Source of the DNA: an uncultured bacterium
GTDB lineage: Bacteria; Omnitrophota; Gorgyraeia; Zapsychrales; Aceulaceae
Assembly: GCA_937930175.1 (NCBI GenBank)
Contig: CALGLP010000011.1
Coordinates: 28,776-92,775 of the forward strand
Direction: 5' to 3'
Length of the DNA: 64,000 nucleotides
Below, piece by piece: positions 1 to 7,363 of this stretch. Under the pieces are notes generated by a model that did not search any database, had not been told where the DNA came from, and was given only the letters and a program-made list of their open reading frames with translations. The translations under genes and the position numbers were made by a program. Within the stretch, counting starts at the first letter, position 1. Each line of letters begins with the position of its first letter.

Positions 1-1947
1 CACAAGAGCTTTTTCAGATTCATCCGTGATATTTGCAAGTAACTCACGAGAAGCTTTGGCTTTTGCCTTATTAATACCCTCAACGGATTTAATAGTCTCT
101 GCAACTTCACCTTGATACTCTAAAGCTACGGGAATAAACATGGTCTTGGCCATATCCACCGCGAGCCTTCCCTCATAATCAAGGATCGTTTTATACATCT
201 CTTGATAAACGTCATAACGTGAAAGAAGCTCAACCTTAGTTAAAACATTATATTTTTCAAAAAGCTTGATCGCTTCTGGCGTTGCAAGTTTTTCAAGAGC
301 TTCAGGCGTTGTCTTGAGATTCGCAAGGCCTCTTTTCTTCGCTTCCTTAACCCAATCTTCAGTGTAATTATCACCATTAAAAATCACTCTTTTATGCTTC
401 TTAATAATACTTTGAAGTAATTTCTGGACCGAAGTATTGAAATCTCTGCTAGCTTTTTTATCCGCTTCGAGAATAGTACAGATTTCGTCTAAAGCCTCGG
501 CGACAATTGTATTCAAGACAATGTTGGGACCAGATAAGCTCATGTTAGAACCAACCGCTCGAAATTCAAACTTTGCTCCTGTAAAAGCAAAAGGAGATGT
601 TCTGTTACGATCCGTGGCATCGCGCGGCAATTTTGGCAGCGAATCAACTCCGATCTCAAGCACTCCACCTTTTTTGGAGGTCTTGGCCCCACCTTTTTCG
701 ATCTGCTCAATAATATCTGTAAGCTGATCACCCAAAAAGATAGAAATGATCGCTGGCGGTGCCTCATGGGAACCCAAGCGATGATCGTTACCGGCAGAGG
801 CAACCGCAGCACGCAAAAGTTCCGCATGCGTATCCACCGCTTTGATGACCGCGCAAAGGGTCACTAAGAATTTCGCATTTTCATGTGGGTTTTCGCCTGG
901 CGACAACCAATTCTTATCATCTGGACCAACGATAGACCAATTATTATGTTTTCCCGAGCCATTGACACCAGCAAAAGGCTTTTCGTGCAACAGGCATGCA
1001 AGCCCGTGCTTTTCTGCAACCTTCTGCATCACTTCCATGCAAAGCATATTATGATCAACAGCTAAATTAAGACTCTCAAAAACAGGCGCTACTTCAAACT
1101 GCGCCGGCGCAACTTCGTTATGTCGCGTCTTGGTAGGAACACCAAGCTTCCACATTTCTTTATCTAAGTCTTCCATAAATCCAATGACGCGTGTCTTAAT
1201 GGCACCAAAATAATGATCTGCCATTTGCTGATGCTTGGCAGGTTCCTTACCAAAAAGCGTGCGGCCAGTTTGGATCAAGTCAATGCGCTCGTTGTAATAT
1301 GCGCGATCAATTAAAAAATATTCTTGCTCGCCACCAAGAGTTGCATACGCTTGCTTACCCTTGCTACTAATACCAAAAAGCTCTGCCAAGCGGCATACCT
1401 GCTTTGACAAGGCCTTCATAGAACGCAACAGGGGTGTTTTCTTATCAAGAGCCTCTCCGTGCCAGCCAATAAAATAGGTTGGAATGCACAGCGTTGTGCT
1501 TTGCACACCTTCCTTAATAAAAGCTGGACTTGTCGGATCCCATCCGGTATAACCTCTGGCTTCAAAGGTCGGCCGAAGGCCTCCCGAAGGAAAGCTTGAC
1601 GCATCAGGCTCTCCTTGGGTAAGTTCTTTACCAGAGAATTTAACGATCACCCCGCCCTCGCCATCGGGTGAAATAAAAGCATCGTGTTTTTCCGCTGTGA
1701 GACCGGTCAAAGGCTGGAACCAATGCGTATAATGCGTTGCCCCCTTAGAAACAGCCCAAGTCTTCATGGCATCAGCGACTTCATCGGCAATACTCGAATC
1801 AAGGACGCCACCGGTTCGAATGGTTGTACTCAAAGATTTATACGCGTTTTCAGAAAGGTAATTGCGCATCACCTTAAGACTAAAAACTTTCTCCCCGTAC
1901 AAATCTTGAATTTCTTTTTCTTTTCCTTTGTCTTGTGTCTCAGACAT
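1..1947 (-). CDS. glnN: Glutamine synthetase type III (GlnN), 5' part of gene; C-terminus lies beyond window start
   Basis: Hand translation of the minus strand from ATG (complement of 1945-1947) gives an uninterrupted reading frame to position 1: MSETQDKGKEKEIQDLYGEKVFSLKVMRNY...GEQEYFLIDRAYY...EVAPAQFE...HEKPFAGVNGSGKHNNWS. The length (649 codons in window, about 720+ aa full) and motifs fit GS type III. RBS GGAGG (complement of 1956-1960) lies 8 nt upstream. It is absent from the supplied ORF track, apparently because it is edge-truncated. Confidence 0.85.
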   Translation of the reverse strand, partial: MSETQDKGKEKEIQDLYGEKVFSLKVMRNYLSENAYKSLSTTIRTGGVLDSSIADEVADAMKTWAVSKGATHYTHWFQPLTGLTAEKHDAFISPDGEGGVIVKFSGKELTQGEPDASSFPSGGLRPTFEARGYTGWDPTSPAFIKEGVQSTTLCIPTYFIGWHGEALDKKTPLLRSMKALSKQVCRLAELFGISSKGKQAYATLGGEQEYFLIDRAYYNERIDLIQTGRTLFGKEPAKHQQMADHYFGAIKTRVIGFMEDLDKEMWKLGVPTKTRHNEVAPAQFEVAPVFESLNLAVDHNMLCMEVMQKVAEKHGLACLLHEKPFAGVNGSGKHNNWSIVGPDDKNWLSPGENPHENAKFLVTLCAVIKAVDTHAELLRAAVASAGNDHRLGSHEAPPAIISIFLGDQLTDIIEQIEKGGAKTSKKGGVLEIGVDSLPKLPRDATDRNRTSPFAFTGAKFEFRAVGSNMSLSGPNIVLNTIVAEALDEICTILEADKKASRDFNTSVQKLLQSIIKKHKRVIFNGDNYTEDWVKEAKKRGLANLKTTPEALEKLATPEAIKLFEKYNVLTKVELLSRYDVYQEMYKTILDYEGRLAVDMAKTMFIPVALEYQGEVAETIKSVEGINKAKAKASRELLANITDESEKALV

Positions 1948-2092
1948 TGCCTGTTCCTCCTAATTTTGATTGATCATTGAGATCTTTAGCTAATTCTTCT
2001 TTCGTATGCATAAACTTTTTACTAAATTTCTTTCCAGCATAAAACATACCTAGAAGAAATAAAACATTTAACGCAGGGACAAGGTAAGCCAT
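1940..2092 (-). CDS. Candidate 51-aa small membrane protein, translationally coupled between glnK and glnN
   Basis: [53 protein letters not shown]. Its ATG overlaps the glnK stop (TAATG) and its TGA overlaps the glnN start (ATGTCTGA). It has one predicted TM helix and a charged tail. It is below the 60-aa cut-off of the ORF track and its own SD is weak. Confidence 0.3.
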   Translation of the reverse strand: MAYLVPALNVLFLLGMFYAGKKFSKKFMHTKEELAKDLNDQSKLGGTGNV

Positions 2093-2433
2093 TATCCAAT
2101 CGCCTCTTTGCCTTCTTCTCCAGTACGAATACGAATACAGCGTGGCAGATCTAAAACAAAGATCTTTCCATCACCAATTTTATCCGTTCTTGCGCCTTTG
2201 ATTATAGCGCTAATCGTAGGTTCAATAAAGTTTTCATTTACAGCAATTTCCAAACGAATTTTCTTTAACAGATTTACTTCCTGCACGGCCCCACGATACG
2301 TTTCACTATAACCTTTTTGTTGGCCGCAGCCCAAAGCGTTGCTTACGGTCATTTTATATACCTTCGCATCAAAGAGTGCCTGCTTAACATCTGTCAATTT
2401 GTGCGGTTGAATCATCGCAATAATAAGTTTCAT
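2092..2433 (-). CDS. glnK: Nitrogen regulatory protein P-II
   Basis: 112-aa protein [13 protein letters not shown]...[10 protein letters not shown] with the typical P-II fold sequence (T-loop region YRGAVQE). It lies immediately downstream of amtB. Confidence 0.9.
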
Positions 2434-2450: not shown

Positions 2451-3911
2451 TTACTGTGTTGAATAAACTTCAAAACCCGCGTAGGCTTCCATGCCATGCT
2501 CATCAATATCAAGGCCGCGGATCTCTTCTTCACGTGTTACGCGCATACCAATAACAAATTTAACCACCTTCCAAAAAATAAAGGATCCTACGAGTGTAAA
2601 CACAATGGCGCTCAAAGAACCGAGGAACTGAATTCCTAAAAGCTTAAATCCTCCACCATAAAACAGTCCATTGCCGGTACTTGTTCCTGTAAGCTTATCC
2701 ACAGCGAACAAACCAACTGCAAGTGTTCCCCAGATACCGTTAGTCAGGTGAACAGCTAGCGCGCCCACAGGATCATCGATCTTTAATCGATCAAAAAATA
2801 AAACCGCGAAGACAACCAGAACGCCAGCGATCCCGCCGATCAAAAGCGACACCGGCAACGTCACAAACGCACATGGTGCGGTAATGGCAACCAATCCTGC
2901 AAGACAACCATTGATCGTCATGCCAAGATCCGGCTTACCAAGCCTTAGCCAAGCCGTTGCAGTTGCTGTCAATAAACCAGCAACAGCTGCTAAATTTGTT
3001 GTGGCCAGAATATGGCTGATCGCTTTAGCATCCGCAGCCATAGTGGATCCAGGATTAAAACCAAACCATCCCAACCACAAGATTAAACAACCCAAGGTGG
3101 CCGAACTCATGTTATGCCCAGGAATAGGGCTAGCTGAGCCATCCAAGCGATACTTTCCAATACGAGGACCCAACAGCAATATACCCACTAAACCTGCGAC
3201 ACCACCAACCGTATGGACAACTGTTGACCCGGCAAAATCAAAAAAACCTTTTTGTGCGAGCCAGCCGCCACCCCAAACCCAATGGCCGATAATCGGATAG
3301 ATAAAAGCCACAAGAAAAAGACTAAACAAAACAAAAGCTAAATACTTAACCCTCTCAGCCACGCACCCCGAAACGATGGTTGCGGCTGTACCAGCAAACA
3401 CCAGCTGAAAGAAAAACTTAGCAGTCAGCGGAATCCCTGTCCATCCGATTGCAGAATAAACCCCGGCGTAAGCTGCTCCTGCGGCTGGGCTGTTATCAGC
3501 ACCAGACAAAAAGAACAGTCCTTTGAGGCCAAGGAATCCATTGCCGTCACCAAACATCAATCCCCAGCCAACAAAATAAAATGCTATCGTACTCACAGCA
3601 AAGACAATAAAATTCTTTGATAGGATGTTAACTGCGTTTTTCGCGCGACAAAACCCCGACTCCACCAAGGCAAAACCTGCGTTCATCCAGAAGACTAAAA
3701 ACGCAGTCACCAGCGTCCAAATAGTATCCATAATCACCTTCTGGTCTGTCATGGCCTGGGTTAAAGCAGCGATCTTATCGCTTAGACCAGCGCTCGTCAT
3801 CTCCTGTGCCCAGCTAGGCCCCACAAACCCTAACAACGCTCCAAAGAGTAAAACCGGTAATATCCGTAAAATCTTTTTATGCAACATTTTATCCTCCCTA
3901 CCCTGAATCAT
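2451..3911 (-). CDS. amtB: Ammonium transporter
   Basis: 486 aa, polytopic, with Amt/MEP family signatures ([20 protein letters not shown], signal peptide). Classic amtB-glnK pairing. Confidence 0.9.
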
Positions 3912-3929: not shown

Positions 3930-4730
3930 TTAAAAATTATAAGTTAATGTCGTTCCCCAGAAAAATTCATCTTTACGCTTAGTCTCCCCCTCCTTGGCGA
4001 CCCCTCCAAATGGCGCATTCCAATTAACGCTAGGAGACAACTTCAAGCTCTTCGTGAGCGGAACAGTAAAGCCTGTAGTCAGGAGCACATCTCCGCCCTC
4101 GCCTGTAATAAAGAGATGCTTATTGTATCCCACATGACCACTTAAATCCAGCGTCACGCCATAAGAAGGAACGATCTCAAGGCTTTTAGCAAGATTGAGA
4201 ACCAGGTAATCTCCGTCTCCGCCGCCTTGGCTCTCCCGGCCGTGATCATGATACCATGTCAACGTCGGAGAAAGAAACGTTTCATACCCAAGCCCCAGGA
4301 TCGACTCCTTGCTAAAAGTCCCGGCCCCTGAAAAATCATAATAGACATAACCGGCTGTCACAGAAAGGGGCTGAAGATCCATCTTCCCTAGTTTTAAATT
4401 CTCAAACTTATGCGTGTAAGTCAGCGTGGTATCTATTTCGTTTGCATTAGGGGCATCGCTATAATCGCTAACCCCAAAATTACCCCAAACGTTCAAATTC
4501 CAGCCTTTAAAAGCGCTGACATTGATGCTTGGCTGAACAACATAGTCGTCATAGAGACGAAATCCACGCCACATATACTTGGAATAAAAGGACGTCGCTC
4601 CGCTAACTTCAATCTCTGCGCTCTTAAAAGCATCTCCAAAAAGAGTCTTGCTTTCTTCGGCAAAAGCAAGGCGCCCGAGACCCAGCCCTAAAATGACCCC
4701 GATAATACTTAACAAAAATTTATTTTTCAC
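3930..4730 (-). CDS. Outer-membrane beta-barrel protein, TorF/Gcw_chp-like putative porin (GTG start)
   Basis: Signal peptide, then SFYSKYMWRGFRLYDDYVVQPSINVSAFKGWNLNVWGNFG, which is the Y-x-x-RG...QP...GW...W-x-N pattern I recall for the Gcw_chp/TorF family. Beta-strand-like alternating pattern and C-terminal aromatic (F). GGAGG RBS 5 nt upstream of GTG. Confidence 0.45.
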   Translation of the reverse strand: MKNKFLLSIIGVILGLGLGRLAFAEESKTLFGDAFKSAEIEVSGATSFYSKYMWRGFRLYDDYVVQPSINVSAFKGWNLNVWGNFGVSDYSDAPNANEIDTTLTYTHKFENLKLGKMDLQPLSVTAGYVYYDFSGAGTFSKESILGLGYETFLSPTLTWYHDHGRESQGGGDGDYLVLNLAKSLEIVPSYGVTLDLSGHVGYNKHLFITGEGGDVLLTTGFTVPLTKSLKLSPSVNWNAPFGGVAKEGETKRKDEFFWGTTLTYNF

Positions 4731-4855
4731 TTTATCCTCCTTTTTTCTTTGAGAGGATCTTTCTTCTAAAAAGAAAAATCCTCGATTAAGCCTGACTCAC
4801 TTTTCCTAAAAATGACCTCTAAGAAAAATGAACTCTGCCAACATTGGCTTTTCGA

Positions 4856-4869
4856 GGACTTCATTGCCC
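4856..4869 (-). promoter_or_regulatory. ANTAR-type hexaloop hairpin, copy 1 (RNA GGGC-AAUGAA-GUCC)
   Basis: Same stem, loop AAUGAA (A1, G4). Its 3' CC is shared with a long-range stem (CCUCGAAAAGCC...GGCUUAAUCGAGG, + coordinates 4780-4857) that is followed by AUUUUUCUUUUU. This third terminator-like structure is a weaker call. Confidence 0.45.
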
Positions 4870-4912
4870 TGCGACAACTTATTTTCATCGACATTTCGTA
4901 AGTTACATCCTT

Positions 4913-4954
4913 ACACAAAAAAACCCGACAACCCCTTATCCTCGGAGATGTCGG
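4913..4954 (-). terminator. Intrinsic terminator T2 inside the leader (CCGACA-U-CUCC...GGGG-U-UGUCGG followed by U7)
   Basis: Minus-strand RNA CCGACAUCUCCGAGGAUAAGGGGUUGUCGG followed by GUUUUUUUGUGU. Confidence 0.5.
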
Positions 4955-4966
4955 ACTTCGCTGCCC
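4953..4966 (-). promoter_or_regulatory. ANTAR-type hexaloop hairpin, copy 2 (RNA GGGC-AGCGAA-GUCC)
   Basis: Same stem as copy 3, loop AGCGAA (A1, G4). Its 3' CC is shared with the 5' strand of terminator T2. Confidence 0.55.
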
Positions 4967-4967
4967 G

Positions 4968-5009
4968 ATAAAAAAAGAAAACTCTTAAACCCTTCAACGG
5001 ATTTAAGAG
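4968..5009 (-). terminator. Intrinsic terminator T1 inside the leader (11-bp stem, GUUGAA loop, UUUUCUUUUUUU)
   Basis: Minus-strand RNA CUCUUAAAUCC-GUUGAA-GGGUUUAAGAG followed by UUUUCUUUUUUUAUC. Confidence 0.6.
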
Positions 5010-5022
5010 GACTTCGTTGCCC
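5009..5022 (-). promoter_or_regulatory. ANTAR-type hexaloop hairpin, copy 3 (RNA GGGC-AACGAA-GUCC)
   Basis: 4-bp stem (one G.U) closing a hexaloop with A at loop position 1 and G at position 4. Its 3' strand shares 1 nt with the 5' strand of terminator T1. Confidence 0.55.
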
Positions 5023-5034
5023 TGCATTGATGAA

Positions 5035-5063
5035 AATATACATCACTGCTTTTGTTTTGTCAA
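5035..5063 (-). promoter_or_regulatory. Sigma70-type promoter of the nitrogen operon leader (-35 TTGACA, 17-nt spacer, -10 TATATT)
   Basis: On the minus strand: TTGACA (complement of 5058-5063), 17 nt, TATATT (complement of 5035-5040). Predicted TSS near 5028, giving a leader of about 300 nt before GTG at 4730. Confidence 0.5.
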
Positions 5064-5314
5064 GAAAATATTTTTCACCTGCTTTTTCACTACAAATCTT
5101 CACTACATCCTCGGCCTTGAAAAATATCCATTCCCGCTCGACACCGAAGGCACACGTTCACCCCCGGACGCCTGGAAAGAAAAAAACTACTTCTTATTCT
5201 TTTTTGGCTTCTTGATTTTTTTGTCTTTCTTTCCTTTGCTTTTATCTCCCAAATCTCTAGCCCCCCTTCCACTCTCTTCTCGTTCACACCCAAGGACACA
5301 TCGGAATCAATACC

Positions 5315-5479
5315 TTAAACAACTTCTTGGATCTCGCTTGTCACTACCTCAACCTGACCAGACTCGGACAAAGCCCGCATCGCCTTCTTTTCTAATTTTC
5401 TTTGTTTCTTTTCTTCAACCTTCTTTTTCTTCGCCAACTCTTTGAGATACTTTTGATGTGAATAATTATCCCTCGCCAT
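5315..5479 (-). CDS. Candidate 54-aa Lys/Glu-rich small protein
   Basis: ATG preceded by AGGAGA 7 nt upstream; MARDNYSHQKYLKELAKKKKVEEKKQRKLEKKAMRALSESGQVEVVTSEIQEVV. The surrounding DNA is purine-rich, so the K/E content may be compositional. Coding status is uncertain. Confidence 0.2.
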   Translation of the reverse strand: MARDNYSHQKYLKELAKKKKVEEKKQRKLEKKAMRALSESGQVEVVTSEIQEVV

Positions 5480-5526: not shown

Positions 5527-5555
5527 AATAAAAAAGGCAACCCCGATGGATTGCC
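5527..5555 (-). terminator. Intrinsic terminator after the GAF-GAF-ANTAR gene
   Basis: Minus-strand RNA GGCAAUCC-AUCG-GGGUUGCC followed by UUUUUUAUU, starting 42 nt after the stop. A second perfect 8-bp hairpin (CUCUAUUG...CAAUAGAG, 5498-5525) follows it. Confidence 0.6.
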
Positions 5556-5596
5556 TTAACACAATACTGTCGCTCTAAAGTAGAATATCTTTTCTC

Positions 5597-6838
5597 CTAG
5601 ACCTTGCGCTGAAAATCATCCATCAAGATAATGGACTCAGCAATCGCCTTCATGGTCTTGCACGAATCCATACTTTTTTTATGAATCATCTTGTACGCCG
5701 CGTCTTCACTAAGATTTTGCATGCGCATCACAATACCCTTAGCCCGCTCAATTAATTTTCGCGTCTCTAACGCCTCCTGAGCCTTAAGGGTCTCTTCCAT
5801 GAGTTTCGTATTCTCAACAGCAATAGCCGCTTGATTGGCCACCATTTGCAAAACATTAACCTCTTCCTGGCTAAACTCATGAGGATCTTGCGTATACACA
5901 TTAATAATCCCGATCACTTTATCTTTAATAACCATCGGAACAGAAACCATGGAGCTTAAACCTTCTTTAATCGCGAGATCGCGATAAGCATAACGCTCCT
6001 CGAGACGCACATCAAAAACAATCATGGGCTTTTTGGTCTTGACCACTTGCCCGCTCAAACTTTGATCCACCTTAATGTTCGGTTTACGCTTGTATTCTTC
6101 GCTTAAGCTCTGCGTGGCCTTGATCGCAAGCTCTTTTCCTTTTTCATCAAGAAGCATAATAGAACATATTTTAGAATTGATCATTTCCGCGGTAACCACT
6201 ACGATCAGGTTAAGGATCTCGTCAAGATAGCTTTCGGAGGTGATCGACTGGCTAACCTGAACGAGCTTATCAAACTGCACGGCTTTCTTCTTAGCCTCCG
6301 CATAAAGCCGGGCATTCTCAATGACCCCGCTCACTTGCTTGGCAATCGTCGACAACAACATAACTGTTTTGGGAGAATGCTGATACGGCTTCTTATGTTG
6401 AATATTAATAACACCCGTAGCCCTTTTCTTATAAATAATCGGAACCGATAGAAAGGCCTCGTACTTATCTTCTGGTAAAAGATCAAAACCTTTAAACCGT
6501 TTATCCTTGTAGGCATTTTCCTTAATATGAACGCCCTTACTTTCTTTAGCAACCCATCCAGTAATCCCTTCACCTATTTTCAAAGTCACCTTGCCTAATT
6601 CTTTAAGGTGAGGAGTTTTGGATGCCATCAAAATGAGGTTCTTTTCTTTATCATCAATGAGATAAATGAAAACGGAATCCGCTTGGGTGATTTCATTAAC
6701 GATCCCGACAACCTCAGACAAAATAGAACCAAGATCAAGTCCCGAGGAGGTCAGGTCGACGATTTTACGTAACGACATGACTTCTTGAGATGAGCTAACT
6801 TGTGTTTTTCTTTGCTTGAAACGAACACTCTCTGGCAT
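5597..6838 (-). CDS. GAF-GAF-ANTAR RNA-binding antitermination regulator
   Basis: Two GAF domains (GITGWVA...FLSVPI; SMVSVPMVIKDKVIGIINVY) and a C-terminal ANTAR domain (ALETRKLIERAKGIVMRMQNLSEDAAYKMIHKKSMDSCKTMKAIAESII). Confidence 0.8.
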   Translation of the reverse strand: MPESVRFKQRKTQVSSSQEVMSLRKIVDLTSSGLDLGSILSEVVGIVNEITQADSVFIYLIDDKEKNLILMASKTPHLKELGKVTLKIGEGITGWVAKESKGVHIKENAYKDKRFKGFDLLPEDKYEAFLSVPIIYKKRATGVINIQHKKPYQHSPKTVMLLSTIAKQVSGVIENARLYAEAKKKAVQFDKLVQVSQSITSESYLDEILNLIVVVTAEMINSKICSIMLLDEKGKELAIKATQSLSEEYKRKPNIKVDQSLSGQVVKTKKPMIVFDVRLEERYAYRDLAIKEGLSSMVSVPMVIKDKVIGIINVYTQDPHEFSQEEVNVLQMVANQAAIAVENTKLMEETLKAQEALETRKLIERAKGIVMRMQNLSEDAAYKMIHKKSMDSCKTMKAIAESIILMDDFQRKV

Positions 6839-6967: not shown

Positions 6968-7363
6968 ATGGAAAAGAAGGGCAATCAAAAAACAATTCTG
7001 ATTATTGATGATGATGTTCTCCAGATCAAGGCGCTCGAAAAAAAGCTTCCGGAAAGCGGCTATAATGTGTTAACCGCAACCAAGGCAGCCGACGGCCTTC
7101 AAATGGCCATGAAAAAATTCCCGGACTTAATTATCTTAGACGTCATGATGCCGATCATCAACGGTTACAATCTTTGCCAATTGCTGAAAAATGACCTCAA
7201 GCACAAAAGCATCCCGATCATTATGCTGACCTCCCGCGATAGCGAAAAAGATAAGAAAATCGGTCAAGACGTTGGTGCCGATGTTTATCTGATCAAGCCC
7301 CTGGACGTACCTCTATTGCTCATAAAAATCAAAGAGTTGCTCGCCCAAACACAGCTTACCTAA
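6968..7363 (+). CDS. Single-domain response regulator (receiver only)
   Basis: ILIIDDD...DLIILDVMMP...MLTSRDS...K motif set of CheY-like receivers. Confidence 0.85.
   Translation: MEKKGNQKTILIIDDDVLQIKALEKKLPESGYNVLTATKAADGLQMAMKKFPDLIILDVMMPIINGYNLCQLLKNDLKHKSIPIIMLTSRDSEKDKKIGQDVGADVYLIKPLDVPLLLIKIKELLAQTQLT

Follow-up and report, generated by a model that had tools for sequence, protein, structure and literature searches.

Is one hexaloop hairpin per terminator sufficient for ANTAR-dependent antitermination, and can such units work in series within a single leader? The question is raised by the untranslated leader (about 5028 to 4731) of an ammonium-uptake and glutamine synthetase operon carried by 64 kb of DNA from an uncultured Omnitrophota bacterium, hereafter called the window; all the leader and operon features described below are on its minus strand. 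Most of what is known of ANTAR antitermination comes from EutV, NasR and AmiR, whose regulatory unit consists of two nearby hairpins and one terminator. A structural study redefined the minimal ANTAR site as a single hexaloop bound by one dimer and left open the existence of natural single-hexaloop attenuators (Walshe et al. 2022, PMC8934654). Judging from sequence analysis, we consider it likely that the leader consists of three serial, protein-dependent attenuators governing a TorF-like porin gene, amtB, glnK and probably glnN, with the product of an upstream GAF-GAF-ANTAR gene as their likely reader.

Three hexaloop hairpins and three terminators lie behind one promoter

The leader follows a sigma-70-type promoter (5035..5063; -35 TTGACA at 5063-5058, -10 TATATT at 5040-5035, 17-nt spacer) in which 11/12 positions match. 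The first hairpin, H1 (5008..5023, AGGGC-AACGAA-GUCCU, -5.0 kcal/mol), begins about 6 nt from the inferred transcript start. It is followed by terminator T1 (4970..5009), which has the 11-bp stem (5009-4982) and U-tract (UUUUCUUUUUUU, 4981-4970) initially described, with an apical loop GUUGAA at 4998-4993. Hairpin H2 (4951..4968, UCGGGC-AGCGAA-GUCCGA, -7.7 kcal/mol) is joined to terminator T2 (4917..4954). The original prediction gave T2 a 10-bp stem plus U7; ten pairs and the U7 (4923-4917) are indeed present, the stem (4954-4925) being refined to 6+4 bp with one U/U mismatch and a G preceding the U7.

The third module starts with H3 (4855..4870, AGGGC-AAUGAA-GUCCU). Its terminator T3 (4768..4858) is a composite hairpin (4858-4779, -30.7 kcal/mol) followed directly by U5CU5 (4778-4768). 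UCCUCGA (4858-4852) pairs with UCGAGGA (4785-4779) and AAGCC with GGCUU, and inner hairpins are enclosed by these helices. This structure had been called a weaker long-range stem with a U-rich tract; stem and tract are real, whereas the stem is not weak, and together they identify T3 as a terminator, if an atypically long one. Six nt after H3 we found a further hexaloop hairpin, GCC-AAUGUU-GGC (4837..4848), which resembles P2, the downstream hairpin of canonical pairs. Its 5′ strand is consumed by the AAGCC/GGCUU helix, so that it is mutually exclusive with T3.

The spacer between T2 and H3 (4916-4871, 46 nt) is about 45 nt longer than in relatives, H2 and H3 being 97 nt apart here versus about 52 nt there. 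An extra 16-bp A/U-rich hairpin (around 4835-4793) is inserted in the T3 loop relative to the orthologue in the related locus L086. A 14-bp hairpin, GAGGAUUUUUCUUU-UUA-GAAGAAAGAUCCUC (4753..4783), also conserved in L086, takes over the 3′ strand and U-tract of T3 and can thus form only in read-through transcripts; its 3′ arm contains GAUCCUC, which resembles an anti-Shine-Dalgarno sequence. The region ends (4728..4740) with the Shine-Dalgarno (SD) sequence GGAGGA (4740-4735) and the GTG start codon (4730-4728) of the porin-like gene.

As claimed at the outset, all three hexaloops (AACGAA, AGCGAA and AAUGAA in H1, H2 and H3, respectively) carry A at position 1 (A1) and G at position 4 (G4). In all three modules the hairpin overlaps its terminator with its 3′ strand, though the range of 1-2 nt first given has to be widened to 1-3 nt when the 4-bp core is considered, or to 2-4 nt when the hairpin is extended to 5-6 bp.

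A 38-codon open reading frame (ORF) running from an AUG at 5026 (5026-4913) through H1, T1, H2 and T2 was considered as a leader peptide. It was rejected since the AUG is replaced by UUG in relatives and the frame is broken in the orthologue alignment by indels whose lengths are not divisible by three. On the plus strand, the ORFs overlapping the leader (4844-5215 and 5017-5445) gave no Pfam match.

The hairpin element is confined to the leader

The 14-nt element GGGCANNGAAGTCC (RNA GGGC-ANNGAA-GUCC), reported to occur three times in the leader, has exactly three matches in the 64 kb, all on the minus strand (4856-4869, 4953-4966 and 5009-5022), and none in dinucleotide-preserving shuffles (n=100). 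A covariance model built from 44 related hairpins detected only H1, H2 and H3 in the window (25.5, 21.3 and 24.3 bits, respectively), the next best score being 12.5 bits; with this model no hairpin module was found in the glnK-glnN spacer. Tandem Repeats Finder returned no array, the modules sharing the 14-nt core and the architecture but not a long repeat. When the whole window was compared to Rfam at gathering thresholds no match was obtained, and the leader searched at an E-value of up to 10 gave chance-level matches only (best rli56, 22.9 bits versus a threshold of 47). As judged by these searches, a known riboswitch or leader family does not account for the region.

The modular layout is conserved in related loci

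To place the leader among its relatives, 80 loci were taken from an alignment of regulator homologues and 10 from exact-protein look-ups. Two of them (L082 and L083) duplicate L081 and were dropped, leaving 88 loci for scanning; L001-L031 and L081-L090 are from Omnitrophota, L032-L080 mostly from Nitrospirota and Acidobacteriota, a few of these loci being assigned to other phyla. The GAF-GAF-ANTAR gene is upstream in the window and in the 88 loci. Among Omnitrophota, the order regulator, (porin), amtB, glnK, glnN is common, and modules are located in the leaders of (porin-)amtB-glnK and of glnN.

The closest leaders have the promoter, H1, T1, H2 and T2 in common and contain two to four modules: three each in L081, L085 and L086, four in L090, two in L084 and at least two in L001 before the contig ends. 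Successive hairpins are 49-57 nt apart in these relatives. The triple layout is thus a conserved feature of the lineage and not an accident of the window. More distant Omnitrophota (L004, L005, L006, L014, L015, L017 and L019) also have two or three modules stacked before amtB, often together with a single module before glnN. The promoter is kept in 9/9 orthologous leaders, with H1 beginning about 12-14 nt past the -10.

We then examined base pairing in eight orthologous leaders, aligned with the promoter as anchor. Pairing of T1 and T2 is 100% in all eight, with seven compensatory pairs (four in T1 and three in T2), values reached by 0/500 shuffles. H1 and H2 are 93.8% paired; their stem GG(G/A)C...GUCC is nearly invariant and the changes are mainly from G-U to G-C. 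This near-invariance points to sequence-specific recognition rather than giving covariation support. T3 has an orthologue in L086 made of the same helices in a compact terminator (-16.2 kcal/mol), where GCC-AACGUU-GGC occupies the place of GCC-AAUGUU-GGC; L081 and L085 have clean T3 hairpins.

The loop sequence was assessed by a loop-blind scan, which retained any C-N6-G hairpin with a stem of 4-7 bp and a terminator immediately next to it. In the Omnitrophota loci, 62 modules were found on the strand of the regulator versus 6 on the opposite strand. A1 is present in 45/62 of these loops (73%), G4 in 54/62 (87%) and A5 in 49/62 (79%), while positions 2, 3 and 6 drift. Conservation of A1 and G4 thus extends to the homologous leaders. 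The loci from Nitrospirota, Acidobacteriota and the few other phyla gave 31 modules versus 6 on the opposite strand, with AAUGGC as loop consensus. The hairpin 3′ strand gives 2-6 nt to the terminator 5′ strand in 51/51 modules, a figure which the adjacency criterion of the scan partly builds in; the overlap in relatives is fuller than in the window, for example GUCCUCUU...AAGAGGAC. With the covariance model (E-value up to 1), 58/59 matches across the loci are on the regulator's strand which, with the confinement of the element to one leader in the window, shows that it is not placed at random.

The GAF-GAF-ANTAR protein retains residues that contact the hexaloop in EutV

The presumed antiterminator is a protein of 413 aa (5597..6838) in which Pfam identifies two GAF domains and an ANTAR domain (PF03861, 2.5e-19). 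The original prediction put its gene directly upstream of the leader. It is upstream, but about 530 nt lie between, including the regulator gene's own intrinsic terminator (5534..5557, a 10-bp stem then a T-run) and a 54-codon ORF; gene and leader are separate transcription units.

The ANTAR domain aligns with Rv1626, EutV and NasR. In the alignment to 6wsh, the EutV contact residues R142, K143, K149, E160, Y164 and M172 correspond to R360, K361, K367, E378, Y382 and M390. These equivalents of the EutV hexaloop contacts are invariant in 23 family members, save Y382 (Y in 13, H in 10). EutV R168, R175 and R177, in contrast, are not kept, their places being taken by H, C and T. In the EutV-RNA structure, Y164 stacks on G4 and M172 forms a hydrophobic plug (PMC8934654). 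Taken together, the strand and place specificity of the element, the A1 and G4 retained in the loop-blind scan, the covariation of the terminators and the conserved contact residues lend computational support to the ANTAR-type reading, with three putative attenuators behind one promoter.

GAF1 resembles the N-terminal GAF of PtsP/EI-Ntr (NF008283, 6.6e-39; PDB 3ci6, 4e-23) and GAF2 that of NifA (TIGR01817, 6.5e-27). The GAF domain of PtsP binds glutamine (PMC4848567). On these grounds we propose nitrogen status as the most likely signal. No module was found upstream of the window's own regulator gene. In L022, a module AGGGC-AAAGAC-GUCCU (82-110) stands immediately before the regulator gene (171-1457), which suggests that this gene may be autoregulated.

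A model of serial antitermination

Transcription would begin at the promoter, which is strong and looks constitutive, and would by default stop at T1, T2 or T3, the 3′ strand of each hexaloop hairpin supplying the bottom base pairs of its own terminator. In the RNA-binding state of the GAF-GAF-ANTAR protein, an ANTAR dimer would grip the hexaloop in the manner of EutV, with G4 flipped out and stacked on the conserved Tyr/His and with the Met residue serving as a plug. The bound hairpin would stay closed, and the terminator base could then not form while RNA polymerase crosses the U-tract. Read-through would have to succeed three times running, so that output would be the product of three decisions, with a very low leak and a steep response. 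The two GAF domains would report cellular nitrogen status, the operon being on under nitrogen limitation and off under excess.

Several points weigh against this model. In module 1, H1 and T1 overlap by only 1-2 nt and, by folding, H1 and a 10-bp T1 can coexist; steric hindrance by the protein has therefore to be assumed. The sharing of nucleotides that sets hairpin against terminator is present in each module and is weakest in module 1. T3, at 80 nt, is unusually long for a terminator. H1 has no upstream partner, while EutV and NasR require both hairpins and the short linker for full binding or antitermination (PMC7496416, PMC8934654). With three modules in series, each without P1 (the upstream hairpin of canonical pairs), induced expression would be poor if any of them were read inefficiently. 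Finally, the ligand is assigned from domain similarity alone, and other ANTAR proteins may be encoded beyond the 64 kb of genome visible here.

A more elaborate version can be envisaged, which we find rather improbable. Each hairpin would antiterminate its own terminator and also serve, in the manner of P1, as a recruitment site for the module that follows about 52 nt later. Extra landing sites would be provided by the G-type hexaloops at terminator apices, and one dimer loaded at the 5′ end would be passed through three or four terminators. Such a relay, if true, would amount to quasi-processive ANTAR antitermination without a classical P1, and to an ultrasensitive nitrogen switch.

Single or paired hexaloops, and other readings of the leader

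How far is this layout from the canonical one? In Nitrospirota, the targets of the regulator homologues have the canonical layout, in which a P1 hexaloop is followed after 40-50 nt by a P2, AGGAC-AAUGGC-GUCCU, whose 3′ strand enters a single terminator. In L067, L039, L056, L080 and L050, such leaders lie downstream of regulators of about 50% identity. The window hairpins have the same stem as this P2 (GG(A/G)C...GUCC) and are thus P2-type elements. H1, about 6 nt into the transcript, leaves no room for an upstream P1, and all that precedes H2 is T1 with its U-tract. Module 3 comes close to the canonical form since the 5′ strand of GCC-AAUGUU-GGC is used by T3. In addition, the apex of T1, 7 nt after H1, is itself a C-G-closed hexaloop, GUUGAA, conserved as RNUGRN in orthologues; it may be a second binding site, or a P1 for the next module. 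The layout had been described as non-canonical. This applies to the tandem arrangement and to the lack of P1 for H1 and H2, whereas the second hexaloop of module 3 and that at the T1 apex bring it nearer to the canonical form.

Could the leader then be a canonical dual-hexaloop system in disguise, with two hexaloops per decision? H1 would pair up with the T1 apex (or the T1 apex would act as P1 for H2), and H3 with GCC-AAUGUU-GGC. We regard this as possible but doubtful. The P2-like hexaloop 6 nt after H3, which competes with T3, fits it well, as do the U3 and G4 of the T1 apex, kept across orthologues while the other positions vary. A clear P1 precedes the first P2 in other Omnitrophota (L004, L006, L015 and L017) and in the Nitrospirota loci, and NasR needs both hairpins for full affinity, a single hairpin being bound weakly, at about 12 uM (PMC7496416). 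C-G-closed apical hexaloops with R1 and G4 occur in 10/53 terminators behind these hairpins versus 1/340 other terminators, a contrast that is overstated since several of the ten cases are mutual orthologues. Against it, module 2 has no second hexaloop, the T2 loop being 8 nt here and not conserved, and a hexaloop on top of a terminator is not mutually exclusive with that terminator, unlike a canonical P2. The apical hexaloops (GUUGAA, GAUGAA, GUUGGU, ACAGAA and others; window 4993-4998, L081, L084, L085, L086, L008, L006, L015 and L019) also begin mostly with G, not A.

The hairpins might instead be read by another factor, be it a different ANTAR protein or some unrelated RNA-binding protein with its gene elsewhere in the genome. 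The portion of genome covered and the separation of regulator gene and leader leave room for this. However, gene and element are linked on the same strand across 88 loci from several phyla, the GG(A/G)C...GUCC stem is common to targets standing beside homologues that are only 50% identical, and the window contains no ANTAR domain other than that of the 6838-5597 protein; such a reader is therefore unlikely. We think it very unlikely that the structures are constitutive (insulators, RNA-stability elements or remnants of tandem duplication), with small hairpins devoid of a regulatory role. The modules do resemble copies of one unit about 52 nt long. Yet an essential nitrogen-assimilation operon would be shut off by three efficient terminators placed right after a near-consensus promoter if these were not conditional, and neither the contrast between conserved (1, 4 and 5) and drifting (2, 3 and 6) loop positions nor the confinement of the element to the leader agrees with this view. 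Alternatively, the last module might exert its effect chiefly at translation: either GUCCUC, the 3′ half of H3, or the GAUCCUC of the 14-bp hairpin would sequester the SD GGAGGA unless protein holds H3. In the minimum-free-energy fold of the whole leader, GUCCUC (4859-4854) does pair with GAGGAU at the SD. This long-range helix is just 6 bp, however, and in partition-function folding with the H hairpins enforced the SD pairs with U-tracts instead, such folds being dominated by U-tract/A-tract pairing with or without enforced hairpins; relatives with clean T3 terminators lack the arrangement. A translational role of this kind thus seems improbable too. Three serial attenuators, each with one P2-type hairpin, remain the reading that we favor.

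Relation to known systems

The principle of ANTAR antitermination is already known, and so is ANTAR control of amtB, P-II and glutamine synthetase genes (PMC3369931, PMC2995071). The A1/G4 dual-hexaloop motif with overlapping terminators was defined by Ramesh et al. 2012, whose search model demanded two hairpins. The targets predicted there precede genes for P-II, ammonium transporters and glutamine synthetase; both the gene classes and the predicted mechanism agree with those of the window (PMC3369931). The same work reports 13 elements in 6 transcription units of Desulfotomaculum acetoxidans, states that no GAF-ANTAR protein had been studied by then and, in its accessible text, contains no description of a tandem series within one leader. 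Omnitrophota is not among the phyla named in the accompanying commentary (PMC3369936).

The eut leaders of Enterococcus faecalis, controlled by EutV, share with the window the A1/G4 hexaloops, the hairpin 3′ strand within the terminator stem and the presence of several attenuators per regulon (PMC3369931, PMC8934654). They differ in having one attenuator per intergenic region, instead of three in series in one leader with H1 and H2 lacking an upstream P1, and in their sensor, a phosphorylated receiver instead of GAF-GAF. In the window, the stem GG(G/A)C/GUCC and loop A5 are also conserved, and the targets are nitrogen-assimilation genes. In Geobacter sulfurreducens, GnfR relieves termination at nitrogen-fixation genes including nifH; terminator-like signals also lie upstream of glnK and amtB, and the protein binds RNA with a conserved CAGGCAANGGCGCC element (Ueki and Lovley 2010, PMC2995071). 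We read this element as a probable GGC-AANGGC-GCC hexaloop hairpin. GnfK/GnfR thus resembles the window in its ANTAR protein, its nitrogen-limitation genes and its single hairpin-like sequence just before and overlapping a terminator. In contrast, GnfR is a response regulator with GnfK as its kinase, a single terminator was described for each leader, and the loop type AANGGC matches the Nitrospirota relatives, not the window. NasR/nasF of Klebsiella and AmiR/amiE of Pseudomonas likewise combine ANTAR with a small-molecule sensor, a leader hexaloop and a nitrogen-related pathway, but the sensors are NIT or AmiC and each leader has a single attenuator.

Complete sensor-terminator units in series behind one promoter are known from the triple T-box leader of Bacillus subtilis thrZ and from tandem riboswitches, where serial units multiply decisions and sharpen the response. 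Their sensors are RNA-tRNA or RNA-ligand, unlike the protein-bound hexaloop proposed here. A literature search for tandem ANTAR attenuators in one leader, or for a GAF-GAF-ANTAR family, found no description; its coverage was incomplete, which makes this weak evidence of novelty. The suggestion that such a leader had not been described for ammonium-uptake or glutamine synthetase operons thus holds for the tandem layout and not for ANTAR control of these genes, which is published. What looks new is the tandem layout without P1, the GAF-GAF sensor (PtsP-like plus NifA-like) and the phylum.

The leader and its relatives form a natural series of two to four putative single-hexaloop units, regularly spaced by about 52 nt behind a strong promoter. 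This compact, cloneable system makes it possible to test whether one hexaloop suffices for antitermination, how serial attenuators affect the dose-response, and which nitrogen metabolite is sensed by the PtsP-like/NifA-like GAF pair. It would also provide a first concrete nitrogen-control circuit for Omnitrophota, to our knowledge a phylum without isolates.

Operon and neighbouring genes

Downstream of the leader, the operon reads TorF-like porin gene, amtB, glnK and glnN, as originally labelled. Profiles identify amtB (ammonium transporter, 2451..3911; PF00909, 3.1e-122), glnK (P-II protein, 2092..2433; PF00543, 1.2e-25) and glnN (glutamine synthetase type III, 1..1959, partial at the window end; GSIII_N, 6.8e-76, with Gln-synt_C and Gln-synt_C-ter). 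The first gene (3930..4730) encodes a secreted protein of 266 aa with a signal peptide and a C-terminus ending in ...TYNF. The protein has no Pfam or NCBIfam match of its own; PF09694 is present in its homologues (38-63% identity), whose annotation reads TorF family putative porin, and on this basis we designate it a putative TorF-family outer-membrane porin. A single-sequence AlphaFold2 model (mean pLDDT 30.8) was discarded and the family names of the homologues were used instead.

A further dual-hexaloop motif, GAGC-AUUGUC-GCUC, 7 nt, then ACC-AAUGGC-GGU, is found just before the ribosome-binding site (RBS) of the porin-like gene in L081 (5516-5553), L084 (2676-2712), L085 (2262-2297) and L090 (3587-3626), with no terminator after it; the window has no such motif. 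This motif might be an ANTAR site acting on translation, or else be recognized by a second ANTAR protein.

The gap of about 470 nt from the regulator's terminator to the leader promoter holds the 54-codon ORF (5315-5479), which is lysine-rich (MARDNYSHQKYLKELAKKKK...), has a GGAG-type RBS and gave no significant Pfam match. In L081, L084 and L085 there is no gap between regulator and leader, whereas L088 and L090 have GIDE-like and LemA genes there, of which no remnants were found in the window.

Beyond Omnitrophota, the regulator family reaches Nitrospirota and Acidobacteriota, where it is located upstream of nadE-glnD. In Nitrospirales L067 (7190-11902), for instance, the regulator homologue is followed by a hexaloop-terminator unit, then by nadE (glutamine-dependent NAD synthetase) and glnD. 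On the other side of the window's GAF-GAF-ANTAR gene, and divergent from it, a stand-alone receiver-domain protein of 131 aa is encoded on the plus strand (6968-7363). This neighbour is retained together with a DUF2148 gene in L081, L084, L085 and L087, and it may be part of the same signalling unit as the GAF-GAF-ANTAR protein.

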